Shown here in pieces: positions 4,117 to 36,659 of a stretch of 48,692 nucleotides of DNA. The DNA comes from a virus (taxonomy: Duplodnaviria; Heunggongvirae; Uroviricota; Caudoviricetes), in the IMG/VR virus record IMGVR_UViG_2654588006_000004. One strand, given 5' to 3'. The position numbers and the translations under genes were made by a program. The notes beneath the pieces are model-generated. The model had not been told where the DNA came from. It did not search any database and was given only the letters and a program-made list of their open reading frames with translations. Numbering within the stretch: position 1 is the first letter of the stretch; every line of letters begins with the position of its first letter.

Positions 4117-4716
4117 TCAGAATTTATAACCGACACCCACGATGAAACTGTTGGTACGCCAGTCACCGCTGCCGGAGCCTTCATAAGCGACGTCAACGGC
4201 CACGGATTCGGTCGGGTTAAACTGCACGCCAGCTCCCCACGCCAGAGACGTGTTGCTGTGGCGACCGTCATCACTTCCGGTCAGCACATCGTGCGTTTTC
4301 CCCTTGTTGTCAGTTACGCGGATATAATCCCCGGAGAAAGTCGACACACGGCTGTAAGCCATACCCGCCATCGCATACGCGCTGAACCATTCATTCACGC
4401 GCACAGACGGCCCCGCCATCACGCTGAACCAGCGATTACGCACGGAATCCTCATGCCAGCGGGTATCGCTGTAATGCGTTTTTTGCTCATCTTCAGCGTT
4501 GGCATAACTGAATGACGTAATCAGCCCCAGCGTGTCCGTAAACTCATAACGGTATTTCACGTTAATCCCGTTCAGATTTTCGCTGCCGGGAGCGTTCGTA
4601 CGGGCATGAAGATACCCTGCGCTCAGTGTGGCCTGCTGCTCAGACGCCCATGCAGGCGCACCGGATACGGCCAGACAGATGGCTGCGGACAAAATGGCTG
4701 CACAAACTTTACGCAT
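4117..4716 (-). CDS. lom: Lom-like outer membrane protein (Ail/Lom family)
   Basis: 199-aa ORF with signal peptide (AICLAVSGAPAWA) and C-terminal beta-barrel ending GVGYKF; located between J and stf as in lambda. Intact here. Confidence 0.9.
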   Translation of the reverse strand: MRKVCAAILSAAICLAVSGAPAWASEQQATLSAGYLHARTNAPGSENLNGINVKYRYEFTDTLGLITSFSYANAEDEQKTHYSDTRWHEDSVRNRWFSVMAGPSVRVNEWFSAYAMAGMAYSRVSTFSGDYIRVTDNKGKTHDVLTGSDDGRHSNTSLAWGAGVQFNPTESVAVDVAYEGSGSGDWRTNSFIVGVGYKF

Positions 4717-26333: not shown

Positions 26334-27791
26334 TTAGGAGCGCCAAAAAAAACCTGAAAACAATATAATAACAGGATAAATTTCAAGGCGACCAAGAATC
26401 ATAGCTATGCACATTAAATATTTTGCAATGTCATTAAGCACTCCGAATGACGATGCAGTAGCCCCAAAACCTAATCCCATATTATTAATACATGCAGCCA
26501 CTGTTGCAAATGATGTAAGAAAATCATATCCCATACCATTTAACACCAGTATAAAAAACACCGTGAAGAGAGTATAAAGAAAAAAGAAACTCCATACAGA
26601 CCTCATTACACGATCTGTAACTATCTTCCCTCCTACATTTACACTCAACAACGCTCTGGGATGAGAAAGCTGATTTATCTCGTGTTTGCTTTGTTTGAAA
26701 AGTATAAGAAATCGAAGTGACTTAATTCCACCACAAGTTGAACCTATACATCCCCCAAAGAAACTTGACAACAGCAAAAACACTATCGTGTGCGTGGGCC
26801 AGCTTGCATAATCCTGCGTAGCTAAACCATTATCAGTGAGCATGGAGCTGGCAAGAAAAAACGAATGAATAAAACTTCCATGCAAGTCATACATACCTAT
26901 ATGCCAGACCTGGAAAGAGGTAACAATGATCACCCCTAAGGCTATTAACAGAAAGAAACGAAGTTCAATATCTCTGATTAAAGGTTTTATCGTTTTCCTG
27001 CTAATAACAATATACCAAAGAGTGAAGTTGAAAGCCGATAGCAGGGAAAAAGAACCAGCCACCAGCTCAACCAAATAGTTATTAAAATATCCGATACTCT
27101 CGCTATGAGTTGAGAAACCACCAAGCGAAACTGTGGAAATCCCGTGACAAATAGCATCAAACAAAGGCATTCCTGCAAGTCTATAACAGACAATACAAGC
27201 AATACCTAATAAAGAATAAGTTATCCACAGTGTCCGTGACGTATCGGCCAGGCGGGGAGTGAGTTTGTCATCCTTAAATGGCCCCGGCATTTCTGACTGA
27301 TAAAGCTTTGCACCACCAATACCCAATAATGGCAATACAGCAACCGCCAGAACAATAACTCCTAAACCACCTATAAAATTTAACTGTGACCGATAGTACA
27401 AATATGCCCGAGGTAATGAACTAACATCATCAATTACAGTTGCTCCTGTTGTTGTTATTCCAGAAACCCCTTCAAACAGAGCATCAATGAACGTTAAATT
27501 AAGTTCTGAGTCAATCCATAAAGGGAATGCACTAATAACAGAAAACAAAATCCAAAACATTACAATTATAATAAACCCATCACGGGTACGTAATTGAATG
27601 CCAGATTTCTTAGTTGTATACCACGCTCCGCCACCAATGCAAAAAAATATAACGAAAGTTATAAAGAAAACGAACAGGCTTTTTTCTTTATAAAACAATG
27701 CTACAACCATTGGTGGCAACATTGAAAGACTATAGAGCCAAACCAGGAACCCACACATATGAGTAACAACTCTTACATGAGATGTATTCAT
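26334..27791 (-). CDS. trkG: Potassium uptake protein TrkG (TrkH family)
   Basis: Polytopic membrane protein whose sequence from MNTSHVRVVTHMCGF... matches the recalled K-12 TrkG (485 aa). The track start at 27809 is a TTG; the ATG at 27791 is more likely. AT-rich gene. Confidence 0.9.
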   Translation of the reverse strand: MNTSHVRVVTHMCGFLVWLYSLSMLPPMVVALFYKEKSLFVFFITFVIFFCIGGGAWYTTKKSGIQLRTRDGFIIIVMFWILFSVISAFPLWIDSELNLTFIDALFEGVSGITTTGATVIDDVSSLPRAYLYYRSQLNFIGGLGVIVLAVAVLPLLGIGGAKLYQSEMPGPFKDDKLTPRLADTSRTLWITYSLLGIACIVCYRLAGMPLFDAICHGISTVSLGGFSTHSESIGYFNNYLVELVAGSFSLLSAFNFTLWYIVISRKTIKPLIRDIELRFFLLIALGVIIVTSFQVWHIGMYDLHGSFIHSFFLASSMLTDNGLATQDYASWPTHTIVFLLLSSFFGGCIGSTCGGIKSLRFLILFKQSKHEINQLSHPRALLSVNVGGKIVTDRVMRSVWSFFFLYTLFTVFFILVLNGMGYDFLTSFATVAACINNMGLGFGATASSFGVLNDIAKYLMCIAMILGRLEIYPVIILFSGFFWRS

Positions 27792-27928
27792 ATCTAAATA
27801 TTCTTTCAATTATAACCACCTTGCTGCAATATTATGATTATACTGTATAAAATTTAACTCCTCTTAGATCTTACTTCACTGTTCCTTATGAAACAATCAT
27901 CAAAATGAATCATATTGTAGTTAAGATT

Positions 27929-29028: not shown

Positions 29029-29301
29029 ATGGACAATAGCACCATTTCTCTACAGGAGTTGCTCGACTGCATTTCCAGGCTTCGGGATGATGTAAATGCC
29101 CTTACTGTCGCATTTTCATATCTGGCATTCTCAATTCCCAAGGAACAAATGCAACCAACACTGGCATCGCTCCAGCTTGAATCACTCAACCCCAAATGGT
29201 CCCAGCAACAACAAAATTCTTTCAAGTGGCTGGCGGTATTACTGGAAGAAAAATATGCTGGTGAAATTACCATTTCGGCGGAGTCTTCAGTGAACCAGTA
29301 A
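29029..29301 (+). CDS. Hypothetical acidic protein, opposite strand inside the lysis cassette
   Basis: 90 aa; strong RBS (GAGAGGATTATTTATG); convergent with and overlapping the 114-aa gene by 35 nt. Confidence 0.4.
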   Translation: MDNSTISLQELLDCISRLRDDVNALTVAFSYLAFSIPKEQMQPTLASLQLESLNPKWSQQQQNSFKWLAVLLEEKYAGEITISAESSVNQ

Positions 29302-29611
29302 TTCTTCCCGGCAGTTTTCCTTTGTAGGTTATCCACACACCCTGCGCCTCTAAAATTATGGGGCGCTTTTCCGGTGACTGCTCATCCCCTTCACATAACC
29401 CGGCAGCAACATCCAGGAAGACCTGTCTGATGCTCCTTCTGGCTGCTGCCTCATAAAACTCCAGCGCGGCACCTTCAACACGGTCCAGCGAGATGTCCAG
29501 GTCTAAAATTTCACCGTCAAAGCGTTTTTTGTCCCGTAACGCTAAAGTTACCGTAACTTTATTCTCAAAATTGCGGATCCCTTTCACAATCAGTTCATAG
29601 TTTTGAGTCAT
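29267..29611 (-). CDS. Hypothetical protein inserted between holin and endolysin
   Basis: 114 aa; GGGGAGAG SD; ATG 5 nt after the holin stop; no recognised family. Confidence 0.5.
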   Translation of the reverse strand: MTQNYELIVKGIRNFENKVTVTLALRDKKRFDGEILDLDISLDRVEGAALEFYEAAARRSIRQVFLDVAAGLCEGDEQSPEKRPIILEAQGVWITYKGKLPGRITGSLKTPPKW

Positions 29612-29615
29612 TGAA

Positions 29616-29831
29616 TTACTCTCCCCGTGCAGCCTTACGCTTATCTTCTTTAATCTTGAAATAAAGATTTGTCAGATACGTCAACAGGCCAAACACCAGA
29701 CTACCCAGCACACCTATTGCTGCCCACTGTGAGGGCGTGACTTTATCGAGCAACTGTAAAAACCAGTAGCCAGCACTGCCTGCGGAGGCGCCATAGGCAA
29801 TGCCTGTTGAAATTTTGTCCATGGATTTCAT
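29616..29831 (-). CDS. Class II holin / pinholin, phage 21 S21-like, with dual-start motif
   Basis: From [26 protein letters not shown]... (71 aa) the sequence closely matches the recalled S21; Met-Lys-Ser-Met dual start preserved; GGAGGTGAGG SD upstream of 29831. Confidence 0.8.
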
Positions 29832-30082
29832 AGCCTCACCTCCGCACGGAACGGATGGCATAGTTATTATGTGTAGGCTTTCAGACACATCAATCAGAGC
29901 CTTAATTGATATATATGCTGGAGACGATGCAATATAAAAAGCTCGCCGTAGCGAGCTAATAAAATGTATTTCTCTGATATTATGTTTATTTGTATTAGCT
30001 CAGACTTGACATCACAGGTTTCGTATATAGAACATCATCAAATCTGTCAGTTTGCTATGAATGAGATATAGTAATTGAAGAG

Positions 30083-30478
30083 CTAACCTCGCATGTCAAA
30101 GCCAGATTTCTGAAAATCTCTGTAGACTTCCGGATTGTTGAAGGCCGGAAATTTGGCTTTATGAGCTGCGGACTTTATCGCTTCGCAATAGGCTTTATCA
30201 CCGTTACTGGTAGATATTTTTAACGCCGTGCCATCCTGAGAGAATTCCATATGCAACCTGCATTTTTTCCCTTTCCAATTATGCGGCTCATCAAGTTTGG
30301 CATTAATTGCAGCTCTTATTCCCCGCGCTTGCGCCCCCCATTCATCCTGATCATCCCAGCGTCCTGAACTGCAACTACCTGTAGCAGTAGTTTTGTGGCA
30401 ATCTGAAGGGTGTAAAGGTGTGCATCCCGCAACAAAACCGACCCAAAAAGTCAACATAACGATTTTCTTTAATCCCAC
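30083..30478 (-). CDS. Lipoprotein with TolA-domain-III-like C-terminal domain (paralogue 2)
   Basis: 131 aa; lipobox VAGC; C-terminus KCRLHMEFSQDGTALKI...NPEVYRDFQ parallels the 142-aa neighbour. Confidence 0.6.
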   Translation of the reverse strand: MGLKKIVMLTFWVGFVAGCTPLHPSDCHKTTATGSCSSGRWDDQDEWGAQARGIRAAINAKLDEPHNWKGKKCRLHMEFSQDGTALKISTSNGDKAYCEAIKSAAHKAKFPAFNNPEVYRDFQKSGFDMRG

Positions 30479-30628
30479 TTCTTGCTCCTCAATCCATTAA
30501 AATCTCAGCAATAGTAGTTGTTACGTCCGCCACTGGCTCAGAGCTGACTATCCGCTAAATTTAGCTCAGTGCCGTAGCTGTGTCAGAACAAACCTAAGCC
30601 GAAACCGTTTATTACAAAACAATAAATA

Positions 30629-31057
30629 TCAGGGTTTAAAATCCAGCACCCCATTTTGAAATACTTTATATACTTCCGGCGAAGGGGGGGCAGGTATATC
30701 AGCATTCTTTATCGCATTCATCGCTTCACGACATAAATCGAGGTCTCCACTTTCTCTTTTAACCTCCAGTAGAAGGCCATTCGGGGCCATATGCATTCTC
30801 AGTGTACACTCTTTTCCTGAATACTTACTCGCATCCCCGAACTGTTTTTCGATGGCGCTCTTGATTTGATGGGCATACAGACGGATATCCTCACTAACAT
30901 CAGAAGTACGTTCAGATGAACTCACATACTGTGTCTCTATTGCTTTATCGGAGTAATATGATGTACGGTCATGATAATTTGTCGATACAGCATCAGTGCA
31001 CCCGATAATAATCCCACTAATAATCAACGTAAGAATTGATGCGCTACGAAAACCCAT
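30629..31057 (-). CDS. Lipoprotein with TolA-domain-III-like C-terminal domain (paralogue 1)
   Basis: 142 aa; lipobox IIGC; C-terminal ~85 aa align closely with the recalled E. coli TolA C-terminus (QIKSAIE...CTLR...LAPDG.LL..K.E.GD..LC...PSP.VY.VF.N..LDFKP). Confidence 0.7.
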   Translation of the reverse strand: MGFRSASILTLIISGIIIGCTDAVSTNYHDRTSYYSDKAIETQYVSSSERTSDVSEDIRLYAHQIKSAIEKQFGDASKYSGKECTLRMHMAPNGLLLEVKRESGDLDLCREAMNAIKNADIPAPPSPEVYKVFQNGVLDFKP

Positions 31058-31645
31058 TTTTCCTCACATATGTCATATAGTAAAGGATTATATATACCGT
31101 TGTTTTGGACGCTCAAACAGCGAATCAGATCAAATAAAACGCACATTTGTTAACATTTACACAAAGTCTGCGTGGGATATTCTGAAAGAAGATCCATAAT
31201 GTGGAGAGAATCTATTGAAGTGCATGGTGCCGGGTGCCTCCCGGTGAACAAAATGTTCGTGATACCTGTCGGCGACAGAAAAGGTTAATGGTATCACCCC
31301 ACCGCACAGGGGGATTCACCATGCAGGAGTTTTCTTAGCAAACTCACTGCGCGCCCGGCAACTCCCAACCACATAAAATGCGGAGTTTGTGGCATTTATG
31401 CATATAACTCGCAGGAATTAACTTAAAAAACTGATGTCGATCCGGATTAAAAAGAAGCAGGTCATCATCAGATGACTGGAAAAAAGGAAAACAAAAAATA
31501 CTCATCATACCGTTTTGATTGCAGGGATGAGCCTGCTATGCACAATATGCAGAATATAAGCAAGATAAAAATATGCAGGCATATTATTTCGGATTTTGTT
31601 ATTAACACAACCTTTTTAATAATCATTTGGCATACAATAAACCAG

Positions 31646-31674
31646 CCCAAAAAGAACCGCCTAAACAGGCGGTT
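31646..31674 (-). terminator. Hairpin AACCGCC/GGCGGUU plus U-tract on the minus transcript
   Basis: Plus strand cccaaaaaGAACCGCCtaaacAGGCGGTT; on the minus strand the stem is followed by CUUUUUGGG. Confidence 0.4.
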
Positions 31675-31994
31675 GGTCAATACAAAGGATGCTTCGTCTT
31701 TATTATAGTAATCTGAGGCGTCGGGTGTCTTGTATCAGACAACATATTGTCCCGCTAAACAGCGAATTACAAACCACCCTGCAATGATCTCTCATCTCAT
31801 TTTATATGAGTTGACGACATCAGGATAACGCATCATCAGCCCCTGCCAAGAAATATCAAAACTCCCGCCAGCAATGTGTTATCACAATATTGTAAAAAAA
31901 ACACAGCACCGAAACTATAACTGGTCTCTGTTATAATTTGGAGCAGAAAGACCAGTTGCCCAACTAGCAGCATTCTCCCCTGCTTTCCTGACGT

Positions 31995-32101: not shown

Positions 32102-32644
32102 TCAAGCCATTTTCTCAGCAAATGATTCACGCATGGGAATATATAGGGCATACTCAGCAACAGCTAACCAATTAGCAATCCGTTTTTCGCATGTGCTAAA
32201 ACACCACTCTGGGTGTGCATCATTTAGCAGTTCAGCCATTTTGCGCTTAGTCATCCCCCGCCCTTCATAGCGTTGCCGGAGAATGCAAATCAATCCTGGA
32301 TGCTCTGCCAGCACCTCACTTATGACTCGATCAATACATAACGCCTCTGCATCAGTACAATGCGCCAGCCAGCTCTTTTGCTTGCCGTTGATCATCTCTC
32401 GCAAAAACGCTTCCAGCTCAGCTTTCTCTATTCCCGCTTTTTTCATTCTGCGCAGGGCTTCATTAATGGCTGTTTTCGTCAGTTTTTTGGATGCCAACAA
32501 CTGATTGAACATATTCCCTGACCTGCCACCGCCAATATACGACCAGCGCCCCCACATACGTAGTTTTCCCTGAATCCAGACACTTTCCAGCGTGGTGAGG
32601 CGAAGGTGTTCTCCGCTTTTTCCTGTATTCGTTGGGTAAATCAT
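32102..32644 (-). CDS. Late-gene antiterminator Q-like protein
   Basis: 180 aa; LRMWGRW motif resembles the LERWGAW of phage-82-type Q; Cys pairs (CTDAEALC, CFSTC); immediately upstream of a terminator and the late region. Confidence 0.5.
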   Translation of the reverse strand: MIYPTNTGKSGEHLRLTTLESVWIQGKLRMWGRWSYIGGGRSGNMFNQLLASKKLTKTAINEALRRMKKAGIEKAELEAFLREMINGKQKSWLAHCTDAEALCIDRVISEVLAEHPGLICILRQRYEGRGMTKRKMAELLNDAHPEWCFSTCEKRIANWLAVAEYALYIPMRESFAEKMA

Positions 32645-34184: not shown

Positions 34185-36659
34185 ATGTCGACAAAGGCCT
34201 ATTATTCTATGGATATCATAACAAAAATCATTGAAGACGCTCAAAAATTACAGTTATCCTCTGCAAATGAAGCTGAAACACGCCTTAAGATCATAGATCA
34301 AATACTCTTTGAAGTATTGAAGTGGACTAGGGATGATGTATCGGTAGAAACTCGAGTTAGCGAAGATGGCGAGACTACTTTTGCTGATTATGTCATTAAA
34401 ACAGCAAGTACTGCGTTTATAATTGAAGCAAAAAAAATTGGTCAGGCATTCGACACAAAACAATTCGATAGGAGACTGAAACTCAACAACAATAATCTTT
34501 CCGGTCCTTTTGGAGATGCCATAATTCAAGCAAGAGATTATTGTAGAAAACTGAGCATTCAATTTGCTGTTGTAACTAATGGTGAACAATGGGTTATATT
34601 CCCAGCAAATAGAACGGATCAAGTTGCATTCAACTCATCTTACGCAATTGTATTTAACAATTTACAAAGTGCACTTAAAGATGACTATACAGAATTTTAT
34701 GACTTATTATCAAGAAAAGCAGTTATAAACTCTAGCCTTGAAGTTACTTTATTAGGCAACAGGGAAGATCAAATAGAAGAAAGACGCTTAAAAAATACAG
34801 TCCGTAAAAGTATCTCTTATGATGCAAAGAATCCAATATACCCATTAGTCGAAGAAGCAATTATCACTTCATTTTCAGATACAATAACAGAAATCGACAA
34901 TGATCTTTTTGAAAGATGTTATGTAAATACTCCTGACAGGATGAAATTTGATAGGCGTATTAATATGCACATATCAAAAAGTCAACACCTCTTTAGTACG
35001 GCGCCTATAAGACCGATGCAAAAAAGAGATGCTAATGTTTTTAAAGAATCACTATTACGAGCAAAAAAGAATTCAAAACCTTTAGCTATTGTTATATTAG
35101 GAACTGTTGGCGCAGGTAAAACCACATTTTTACATTACACACGAAATATATCTGCCGCATCGTATTTCGAAAAATCAAATAATAAACCCTATCCTCATTG
35201 GATAAAGGTGGATTTTTTACAATACACGAATGACGAGTCCCCTATAGACTACATTTATAATATAATAAAAAACTATATTATAAGTGATCCATTTTTTTGC
35301 AATTATGAGCTATGCATACAGAACGCATACAAAGATGAGATAACTTCTATAAAAAAAGGACCTGCATTTCTTATTGCGAAGGATGAAGAAAAAATCAATC
35401 AACTAATTACAAACAAGCTACAAGCTGATTTTGACAAAGTTAAGCCATATGCTGATACTTTAATCAGCTATGCAACGAAAAACACACCTGTTTTTCTTGT
35501 TGTGGATAACGTTGATCAACTCAGCGAAGAAGTCCAATCTCAAATTTTCACTGATTGTGTAGCATTTTCCCAGAGACTCAAATGTAATCTTGTTATATCA
35601 TTACGTAATTCTACATATGTTGAACACCGTAACTCCCCAGCGTTTAACGCATTTGATTTCGATCCTATTCTTATTGAACCACCAAAAGTAGAGGCTGTTT
35701 TATCTAAACGTTTTTTCTTAGCCAAAAATATGCTTGAAGGAGAAGAAGGTGATTTTCTTTCAGATAATGGGATAAGATTTCACGTTGATAACAAAGCCGA
35801 TTTAATAAGCTTATTACAAAGCTCTGTTTTAGGAACAGAAATCGGCAATTTACTTGAAGTACTTGCTGCCGGAGACATCAGAAATGCACTAAGAATGACA
35901 AGAGAATTTATTGAACATGGTTATACAAATCCAGGTAAAGCTATGCGAATATATAGTGAAGGTGGCAACTATATATTGCCTAAGCATGAGGCTCTCAGAG
36001 CGATACTGCTAGGGAACCAAGCTGTATATTCAGAGGCTTATTCATTGGTTGGCAACCCATTTGATTCAAGACTGGGAAGGACCAACTTCCAACTTTTGAG
36101 ACTATTCGTTTTAGCAGCATTAGTCCAATATAGTGCTGATCCTGCATTTCAATATATCGACGGAATTGACATCCGAAAACAACTTAGAAAAATTGGTGTC
36201 GGTGATGATGACTCAATTGCCATACTGCGTGATTTATGTAAATTACGCTTTATAAGCACGGCTGGTCATGATGTACCAGAATTCAAATCAAGTTTTTATC
36301 CTACAAGACTTGGGGGATATATTACTAAGGAGCTAATCAGTAATTTTACATTTGTTGAATGTACTATGATGGACTCATTCATTGCGAACGAAAAAGTTTG
36401 GGAAGATCTAAAAGGATTTGAACGTTTAATTATAAACTCCTCCAGCGATGTAATCAAAAGACTAGAATATAGAAAGGAACGAGCACAAATATTTTTTGAT
36501 TATATGCTAGAACTATATAGTTCGCTGCTTGAGGAAGCCAATAAACGTGTATTACCTAAAGAATGGCGCACCAATCCTTTGCAGGAAGCTAGATATTCCT
36601 TCATTGAAAATCTAAACAAAGCCCTGCAATCAGCACAGAGAAATTACGGGGAAAAATAA
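34185..36659 (+). CDS. Large nuclease/NTPase fusion: N-terminal HsdR-N/Mrr-like PD-(D/E)xK signature + P-loop NTPase + C-terminal helical domain; candidate defence protein
   Basis: 824 aa; FADYVIK...FIIEAKK (D68, E81, K83); Walker A GTVGAGKT (aa 306-313); Walker B-like VFLVVDNVDQL; sensor-2-like GDIRNALR; AT-rich; opposite strand to neighbours; own terminator. Confidence 0.7.
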   Translation: MSTKAYYSMDIITKIIEDAQKLQLSSANEAETRLKIIDQILFEVLKWTRDDVSVETRVSEDGETTFADYVIKTASTAFIIEAKKIGQAFDTKQFDRRLKLNNNNLSGPFGDAIIQARDYCRKLSIQFAVVTNGEQWVIFPANRTDQVAFNSSYAIVFNNLQSALKDDYTEFYDLLSRKAVINSSLEVTLLGNREDQIEERRLKNTVRKSISYDAKNPIYPLVEEAIITSFSDTITEIDNDLFERCYVNTPDRMKFDRRINMHISKSQHLFSTAPIRPMQKRDANVFKESLLRAKKNSKPLAIVILGTVGAGKTTFLHYTRNISAASYFEKSNNKPYPHWIKVDFLQYTNDESPIDYIYNIIKNYIISDPFFCNYELCIQNAYKDEITSIKKGPAFLIAKDEEKINQLITNKLQADFDKVKPYADTLISYATKNTPVFLVVDNVDQLSEEVQSQIFTDCVAFSQRLKCNLVISLRNSTYVEHRNSPAFNAFDFDPILIEPPKVEAVLSKRFFLAKNMLEGEEGDFLSDNGIRFHVDNKADLISLLQSSVLGTEIGNLLEVLAAGDIRNALRMTREFIEHGYTNPGKAMRIYSEGGNYILPKHEALRAILLGNQAVYSEAYSLVGNPFDSRLGRTNFQLLRLFVLAALVQYSADPAFQYIDGIDIRKQLRKIGVGDDDSIAILRDLCKLRFISTAGHDVPEFKSSFYPTRLGGYITKELISNFTFVECTMMDSFIANEKVWEDLKGFERLIINSSSDVIKRLEYRKERAQIFFDYMLELYSSLLEEANKRVLPKEWRTNPLQEARYSFIENLNKALQSAQRNYGEK

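Follow-up and report, generated by a model that had tools for sequence, protein, structure and literature searches.

The 48,692-nucleotide stretch of DNA analysed here (IMG/VR virus record IMGVR_UViG_2654588006_000004, Caudoviricetes; hereafter the window, to which positions refer) corresponds to a complete lambdoid prophage of the Rac type, which is read on the minus strand. Between its Q-like antiterminator gene and its holin gene lie two tandem minus-strand genes, which we call A (30629..31057) and B (30083..30478), each encoding a small predicted lipoprotein that carries a copy of domain III, the C-terminal domain, of the cell envelope protein TolA (TolA III). We propose, tentatively and as a reading that we judge somewhat short of probable, that both proteins are motor-uncoupled decoys, held near the outer membrane, which would capture Tol-dependent bacteriocins, the g3p protein of filamentous phages and possibly TolB. 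A would be the clearer candidate, because its domain is the closest to the host's own TolA III and because its docking strand is kept; B, with its diverged surface and its conserved extra N-terminal motif, probably has a narrower or a different partner, for which TolB is a candidate. The domain assignment of the two proteins is already known from RefSeq, Pfam and PHROGs, and is in this respect trivial. As for their function, a full-text literature search, RefSeq accessions and PGAP names included, found no functional study of a prophage or plasmid TolA-like lipoprotein, in line with the first-pass annotation of this DNA, which had regarded prophage lipoproteins of this kind as uncharacterised. 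A paper on anti-defence genes in plasmid leading regions (PMC11541004) makes no mention of TolA, and a 2025 paper on the evolution of TolA and TonB contains no discussion of stand-alone domain III lipoproteins.

Gene A starts with an ATG at 31057, with the Shine-Dalgarno sequence GAGG in front of it, and encodes 142 amino acids, while gene B, of 131 amino acids, starts with a GTG at 30478 that is preceded by GAGGAG. PGAP gives a shorter B (124 amino acids, from an internal Met); the GTG start gives back a normal, positively charged n-region. We considered as lipoproteins the sequences that combine a positive n-region, a hydrophobic core and a lipobox of the form [LVI][ASTVI][GAS]C. The signal peptide of A (MGFRSASILTLIISGIIIGC, followed by TD) has R4 in its n-region, a hydrophobic segment at residues 7-18 and the lipobox IIGC, which ends at Cys20; that of B (MGLKKIVMLTFWVGFVAGC, followed by TP) has K4 and K5, a hydrophobic segment at residues 6-17 and the lipobox VAGC, which ends at Cys19. 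Both are thus predicted lipoproteins, with the features of signal peptidase II substrates, and none of the full-length family members that we looked at has lost the lipobox. The two open reading frames (ORFs) with lipoboxed signal peptides which the first-pass annotation had described are found at exactly these coordinates. Downstream of the lipid cysteine, A presents a disordered linker (residues 21-54) and then its TolA domain III copy (55-142), and B a conserved Cys-containing segment (20-44), after which comes its TolA domain III-like fold (45-131). In both proteins the residue at position +2, directly after the lipid cysteine, is a Thr and not an Asp; 120 members of the B family have Ala, Thr, Ser, Gly or Val there. 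Lipoproteins in which Asp is absent at +2 are sorted to the outer membrane by the Lol pathway, and the Thr found at this position therefore predicts an outer-membrane location for A and B.

The C-terminal parts of both proteins match the Pfam family PF06519 (TolA C-terminal), at scores of 82.6 bits (A) and 54.6 bits (B), where the cut-off is 25 bits. At E <= 1, TolA is the only Pfam family returned for both, along with TonB_2 for A and a sub-threshold But2 for B; above the cut-offs are found only TolA and, for A, TonB_2. A phmmer search against the PDB sequences returns the E. coli TolA III chains with E = 5e-28 for A and E = 5e-9 for B. In BLASTP, A aligns to TolA 336-421 without any gap and up to the last residue (VLDFKP for PLDFKP), with 52 of the 86 residues identical (60%), and B shares with TolA III 26 of 77 residues (34%). 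The match of the 142-residue protein to the TolA C-terminus, which the first-pass annotation had proposed, thus goes far beyond chance, and the related C-termini that had been noticed in the pair are borne out by the common Pfam family and by 29% identity between A and B across their full length (E = 2e-18). Of the library cluster representatives that align over 80 residues or more, none comes closer to the domain of A than does E. coli TolA III, which is 60% identical to it, the representatives reaching 57% at most.

Structure prediction, which had been named as a check together with pairwise alignment, agrees with the sequence comparison. AlphaFold2 models residues 55-142 of A and 45-131 of B with a predicted local distance difference test (pLDDT) above 90, and leaves the 25-34 residues ahead of the domain disordered. 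The top Foldseek matches of both models are structures of E. coli TolA III, at a root-mean-square deviation (rmsd) of 0.6 Å for A (2x9a_B, TMt 0.94) and 1.1 Å for B (3qdp, TMt 0.89). The conserved cysteine pair, C363 and C388 in TolA, is invariant in the family alignments, and A and B both have the TolA III fold, in which a three-stranded sheet packs against helices.

In published work, a single site on TolA III, made up of helix alpha-1 and strand beta-3, receives three ligands by beta-strand augmentation: the N1 domain of g3p (g3p-N1), the TolB N-terminus and colicin N (PMC4339652; review PMC7391070). In TolA, the substitutions D418P and K420P abolish the binding of colicin N, g3p and TolB and result in a tol phenotype, Y340A weakens the site, and it is disrupted by I344D and by I348D (PMC4339652). 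The binding site of colicin A is on the other edge of the domain (L375-P380), where it makes cation-pi contacts to K368, K379 and K396 (PMC3365938). A is identical to TolA at Y340, I344 and I348 and over the beta-3 residues L417-P421 (LDFKP); its colicin A box is mostly kept, LLDIKP being replaced by LLEVKR, and K379 and K396 are present. B keeps I344 and I348, and beta-3 is proline-free in A as in B. We did not use the per-column conservation of the A family, which is dominated by near-identical sequences and fragments. As the docking residues are kept while the anchor and domain II are missing, A appears to have the features needed to bind the ligands of TolA III without being linked to the TolQR motor.

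Neither protein is TolA itself. With TolA III (about residues 334-421; structures 1TOL, 1S62, 3QDP/3QDR and 2X9A) they share the alpha1-beta1-beta2-alpha2-alpha3-beta3 order and the disulfide cysteines, and the beta-3 docking strand of A is that of TolA. However, TolA has an N-terminal membrane anchor, which contacts the TolQR motor, and a helical domain II, whereas A and B are devoid of both and carry, in place of the anchor, the signal peptide of a lipoprotein, followed by a tether that is short and disordered. Without a transmembrane helix and domain II, there is no coupling to the TolQR proton-motive-force motor; A and B are therefore unable to transduce force, and hence are not TolA. The gene setting also differs, since tolA belongs to the tol-pal operon. 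The profile models point the same way. The full-length TolA model NF007065, whose cut-off is 213, gives scores of 107.8 for A and 53.7 for B, and the match covers only profile positions of about 293-387 (the last 95 or so for A, 80 or so for B). TIGR02794 gives 75.6 for A, above its cut-off of 59.45, through the C-terminal part alone, and 47.2 for B, under this cut-off. It is because A passes TIGR02794 on its C-terminal part that RefSeq names it 'cell envelope integrity protein TolA', a name that misleads for a 142-residue protein, whatever its function.

In the decoy reading, A and B would be accessory (moron) genes of the Rac-like prophage, each making a small lipoprotein. Ligands that dock on TolA III by beta-strand augmentation, i.e., the translocation domains of Tol-dependent bacteriocins, the g3p N1 domain and the TolB N-terminus, would be captured competitively by the copy tethered immediately beneath the outer membrane. 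Import would stall at this point, because no force can pass through a motor-free copy, and the result would be a lysogen that tolerates group A colicins or cloacins as well as pilus-specific filamentous phages. Work by Levengood-Freyermuth in 1993 is said to have found that exported TolA III raises tolerance to colicins E1, E2, E3 and A, and not to the TonB-dependent colicin D.

The strongest comparative support for decoys comes from the repeated capture of TolA-III domains by mobile elements, including that of a TolA-III domain paired with a TonB_C one and located beside a bacteriocin operon. This pair is found on small Klebsiella ColRNAI cloacin plasmids, as on the K. pneumoniae plasmid CP043367 (L003 3687-4420), where a gene for a 123-residue TolA-III lipoprotein is followed by one for a 121-residue, Sec-exported TonB_C protein; both adjoin the cloacin, immunity and lysis genes, and together they are copies of both import hubs. 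The lipoprotein has the lipobox LTAC and the C-terminus NAPLDFRP, and is 48% identical to E. coli TolA III and 39% identical to A. Searching with A by tblastn returns more than 400 mobilizable plasmid records, and a spread sample suggests that many of them are small Klebsiella plasmids of the cloacin kind. Genes called 'TolA' and 'TolB family' are listed on a Klebsiella cloacin plasmid, with no function given (PMC10269471). It is conceivable, although we hold it rather doubtful, that the mobile elements of Enterobacterales deploy lipid-anchored or secreted copies of TolA III and of the TonB C-terminal domain as a general 'import-decoy' immunity, in which dead-end receptors encoded by prophages, IncF and IncI plasmids and small bacteriocin plasmids would intercept bacteriocins and filamentous phages once these are across the outer membrane.

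Of 5426 complete E. coli genomes, 771 contain the 1.4-kb A-B cassette at >=99% identity, and it also occurs in phage mEp460_ev081 and in many IMG/VR prophage contigs; our scan of viral contigs returned near-identical copies of the cassette only, with no further diversity. E. coli is the only species in which proteins of the A family were found (65-100% identity, each 142 residues long and lipoboxed), and the prophage slot between Q and holin the only place. Variants of 91% and 66% identity stand there alone, without B, in other lambdoid prophages, whose Q genes are of the lambda type and which also contain tRNA genes and an esterase of the stx-adjacent type. This occurrence of A-family genes without B in the same slot rules out that the two genes form an obligate pair.

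The B family is separate and much wider, with 368 clusters across Enterobacterales. A B cassette of about 430 bp is found, at 84-87% nucleotide identity, in IncF and IncI plasmids and in Enterobacter and Serratia chromosomes, and about 600 plasmid records, IncF and IncI types included, have a copy that is 80-90% identical. An 88%-identical homologue lies in the leading region of a pO157-like IncF plasmid, after ssb, psiB, psiA and hok (L004 6965-7396), and another, also 88% identical, comes immediately behind the relaxase gene on an IncI plasmid (L006 6965-7396); the DNA that they have in common is only about 430 bp long. IncF and IncI plasmids encode the pili to which pilus-specific filamentous phages attach. 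Classical F (NC_002483), whose hosts are sensitive to M13, has no B-family gene, which speaks for the decoy reading. In chromosomes the gene is found alone; its neighbours are of the housekeeping type in Enterobacter, and in Serratia it adjoins nrdDG. In the Serratia chromosome, GmrSD-like and HEPN genes, likely involved in defence, also adjoin it (L011 8957-10736). Separately, on the Klebsiella IncF plasmid NZ_CP070426 (L005 5217-6246), a TolA_C gene lies directly 3' of a thioredoxin-fold gene, which may bear on the disulfide of the domain.

The segment that follows the lipid cysteine of B, PLHPSDCHKTTATGSCSSGRWDDQDEW (residues 20-44; region of 30404..30421 in the window), contains two extra cysteines, is disordered in the AlphaFold2 model and reads PLHPSxCHKTTATGSCSSGRWDDQDEW as a consensus across genera. 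Conservation of residues 19-44 in 120 clusters, which come from many genera, amounts to 96%, compared with 93% for the TolA-III domain, and a segment conserved beyond the domain is therefore not a passive tether. We considered whether the stretch SSGRWDDQDEWG within it could be a colicin-type TolB box (DGSGW...W), and rejected this, since only the Trp residues line up and the spacing differs. More broadly, a HMMER scan of 1.84 billion representatives yielded 333 relatives; among the top 150 of these, 89 have no more than 200 residues, and at least 45 of the 89 have a lipobox, while ordinary signal peptides occur in others. Neither the lipobox nor either of the two domain cysteines is lost in any of the diverged full-length family members (65-91% identity). 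The first-pass annotation had suggested that A and B could be decoys: the two TolA-III lipoproteins in this slot stand, but the picture of two tandem decoys is too simple for B, which belongs to a separate and slowly evolving family that is also found in ordinary chromosomal settings.

The slot itself is bounded upstream by the Q-like antiterminator gene (32102..32644, minus strand; DUF1133 in PGAP), which matches PHROG 753, 'anti-termination protein Q-like', with E = 2e-79, and downstream by the essD-like holin gene (29616..29888, minus strand), identified by the PHROG holin families and by PGAP on an identical locus; A and B thus lie where they had been placed, between Q and the lysis cassette. 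The content of this slot differs among related prophages, which have there A alone, tRNAs or an esterase, and it is also the site of stx in Shiga-toxin phages. No tRNA gene was found in the window. The layout of the A-B cassette, a promoter-like site, the genes and a terminator, resembles a moron arrangement. A sigma-70-like promoter candidate (31087..31116, minus strand; TTGAGC, an 18-nt spacer and TATAAT, with 10/12 consensus matches) stands about 30 nt 5' of the ATG of A and is kept in the variant loci of 91% identity, with one base differing in the -10 hexamer. A weaker promoter-like site (30558..30586, minus strand; CTGACA, a 17-nt spacer and TAAATT, 9/12) occurs in the 150-nt spacer between A and B, at chance level when taken alone. 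On the other side, 3' of B and 5' of the holin gene, a sequence scan and RNA folding identify an intrinsic terminator-like hairpin with a U-run (29940..29957, minus strand), the first strong terminator past the cassette; its folding energy is -13 kcal/mol with z = -4.9, and none of 200 shuffled sequences was as stable.

Several observations weigh against the decoy reading. The consensus match is all that defines the promoter candidates, and 11 such sites were found in the region for 8.1 expected by chance, so that the site 5' of A belongs to a count near the chance level. The position of A and B in the late operon, just 5' of the holin gene, also fits a role in lysis. In A, the first lysine of the colicin A cation-pi triad, K368, is replaced by a His; in B, Y340 is replaced by a Gln and beta-3 reads FDMR. 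The B family includes the lone chromosomal genes described above and is conserved at about 93-96% across genera, its N-terminal segment included, a pattern that suggests an endogenous partner rather than a decoy engaged in an arms race. A decoy that binds TolB could, moreover, have a cost for envelope integrity. Finally, PADLOC gives no match for A or B, and PHROGs places both in phrog_5772, of 'unknown function'.

The main rival explanation, which we consider unlikely, is that A and B are saboteurs of the Tol-Pal system: bulk TolA III, made from the Q-antiterminated late transcript, would compete for the TolB N-terminus, and the transient tol phenotype that results, i.e., a leaky and vesiculating outer membrane, would help spanin-mediated lysis or the release of progeny or cargo. 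The genes are indeed inside the late transcription unit and directly 5' of the holin gene. The beta-3 strand of TolA, to which that of A is identical, is the TolB docking site, and breaking this contact gives a tol phenotype (PMC4339652); furthermore, according to PMC6195910, which cites Wan & Baneyx 1998 and Levengood-Freyermuth et al. 1993, exported free TolA III perturbs the envelope and causes the release of periplasmic proteins. On the other hand, the affinity between TolA and TolB is weak, with a dissociation constant of about 40-200 µM (PMC7391070), and the phage already has a full set of holin, endolysin and Rz/Rz1. The cassette has its own promoter-like site and terminator, as is typical of morons expressed in the lysogen, homologues on plasmids and in chromosomes occur away from any lysis genes, and the TonB_C partner on the cloacin plasmids would be left unexplained.

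A second explanation, to which we also assign a low probability, concerns mainly B. This protein would descend from an ancient duplication of TolA III and serve the physiology of the envelope, for instance by tuning the TolB-Pal cycle or by binding another protein through the Cys-containing N-terminal motif; mobile elements would carry its gene as a general fitness gene, and it would have no exclusion function. This explanation accounts for the single chromosomal genes of Enterobacter and Serratia, for the breadth of the family (368 clusters), for a segment after the lipid cysteine that is more conserved than the domain, for the altered surface residues in a domain only 34% identical to TolA III, and for the many short lipoprotein or secreted TolA_C proteins among the top relatives. 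However, the 430-bp cassette has moved into prophage, IncF and IncI contexts, which argues for a portable benefit that is independent of host physiology; GmrSD- and HEPN-type defence genes are among its Serratia neighbours; and the prophage cargo slot is the only place in which we saw genes of the A family. That A and B are inert debris, tolA fragments left by illegitimate recombination from which no functional protein is made, as the simple RefSeq name of A and the resemblance of its domain to a copy of the 3' end of the host gene might suggest, is hardly credible in view of their intact ORFs with complete lipoprotein signal peptides and good ribosome-binding sites, the copies at >=99% identity in 771 genomes, the lipobox and domain cysteines kept in relatives of 65-91% identity, and the mere 60% identity of A to host TolA, which rules out a recent capture.

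Around the cassette, other features of the slot can be described. A strong hairpin of -19.7 kcal/mol forms a terminator 3' of the Q-like gene. Further 3', a scan identifies a candidate late promoter followed by a short terminator hairpin (31655..31731, minus strand), with AAGACA, an 18-nt spacer and TATAAT at 31731..31702 and the hairpin at 31674..31655 (-13 kcal/mol, z = -2.25). We infer that 31731..31655 is a pR'/tR'-like unit, from which Q-modified transcription would traverse A, B and the lysis genes. An RNA element of the STnc100 family (RF02076; 31168..31354, minus strand) lies 5' of gene A, with 83.2 bits for a gathering score of 47 (E = 1.4e-17). In related prophages, more STnc100 copies stand on both sides of the A-family gene (L020 4704-4877, 5599-5803 and 5854-6061; L001 5444-5634), and the element looks like a repeated structured element at the cargo boundaries of the slot.

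Elsewhere, the prophage comprises tail, head and terminase genes, trkG, the lysis cassette, the Q-like gene, replication and immunity genes and the integrase end. In the lysis cassette, the holin gene is followed on its 3' side by DUF1327/YdfR, then by lysozyme and Rz/Rz1. A 90-residue ORF (29029..29301, plus strand), hypothetical in PGAP, lies inside this cassette between the lysozyme and DUF1327/YdfR genes and overlaps the 3' end of the YdfR gene (29267..29611, minus strand). The potassium-transporter gene trkG (26334..27809, minus strand), a cargo of Rac-type prophages, stands between the lysis cassette and the ParB/terminase genes. In the tail-fibre region, a gene for a Lom/Ail-family outer-membrane protein (4117..4716, minus strand; Pfam Ail_Lom, E = 6e-125) is a second envelope-directed cargo gene. 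On the opposite strand, in the early region upstream of the NinB and Q-like genes, an ORF of 824 residues (34185..36659, plus strand) has an HSDR_N-like N-terminus, a KAP/P-loop NTPase domain and weak PADLOC matches (DrmMI, PDC-M54B), and is a candidate prophage-borne defence gene.

If the decoy reading is true, a portable determinant that makes its host tolerant to filamentous phages and Tol-dependent bacteriocins would exist in roughly one of every seven sequenced E. coli, as well as on many IncF and IncI plasmids, pO157-like ones included, and on Klebsiella bacteriocin plasmids. The logic of exclusion would be new, since a host periplasmic co-receptor would be copied while the surface receptor is not masked, and import decoys would form a class apart from receptor masking and from cognate immunity proteins. 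This would bear on colicin- and phage-based therapeutics, on the ecology of the pilus-specific phages that police conjugative plasmids, and on the manipulation of the Tol-Pal hub from the outer-membrane side.

Besides TolA itself, one of the known systems close to A and B is the Klebsiella cloacin-plasmid lipoprotein, which likewise combines a lipobox with a TolA_C domain and is a mobile-element cargo; it differs by standing beside a bacteriocin operon and by having a TonB_C protein as its partner, whereas the partner of A is a second TolA_C protein. Llp of T5, Cor of phi80, N15 and HK022, and the plasmid protein TraT are, like A and B, small lipoproteins encoded by mobile elements, which the carrier cell probably makes and which probably line the outer membrane on its inner face. 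Here the likeness lies in the expected outcome, the exclusion of incoming phages or colicins, and not in ancestry; Pfam reveals no sequence relation of A or B to the Cor/Llp family. Llp and Cor bind the outer-membrane receptor FhuA, whereas A and B would mimic a periplasmic co-receptor and soak up the ligand of the invader. The g3p (pIII) protein made in cells infected by filamentous phages confers superinfection resistance together with colicin tolerance (PMC10424213), and targets the very interface, between g3p-N1 and TolA III, that we propose for A and B, with a mirror-image logic: g3p blocks the host receptor, while A and B would offer extra, dead-end receptor domains. As a precedent for the decoy reading, periplasmic g3p-N1 or full-length pIII sequesters TolA, which results in colicin A resistance and in a 4-log drop of phage uptake (PMC10424213).

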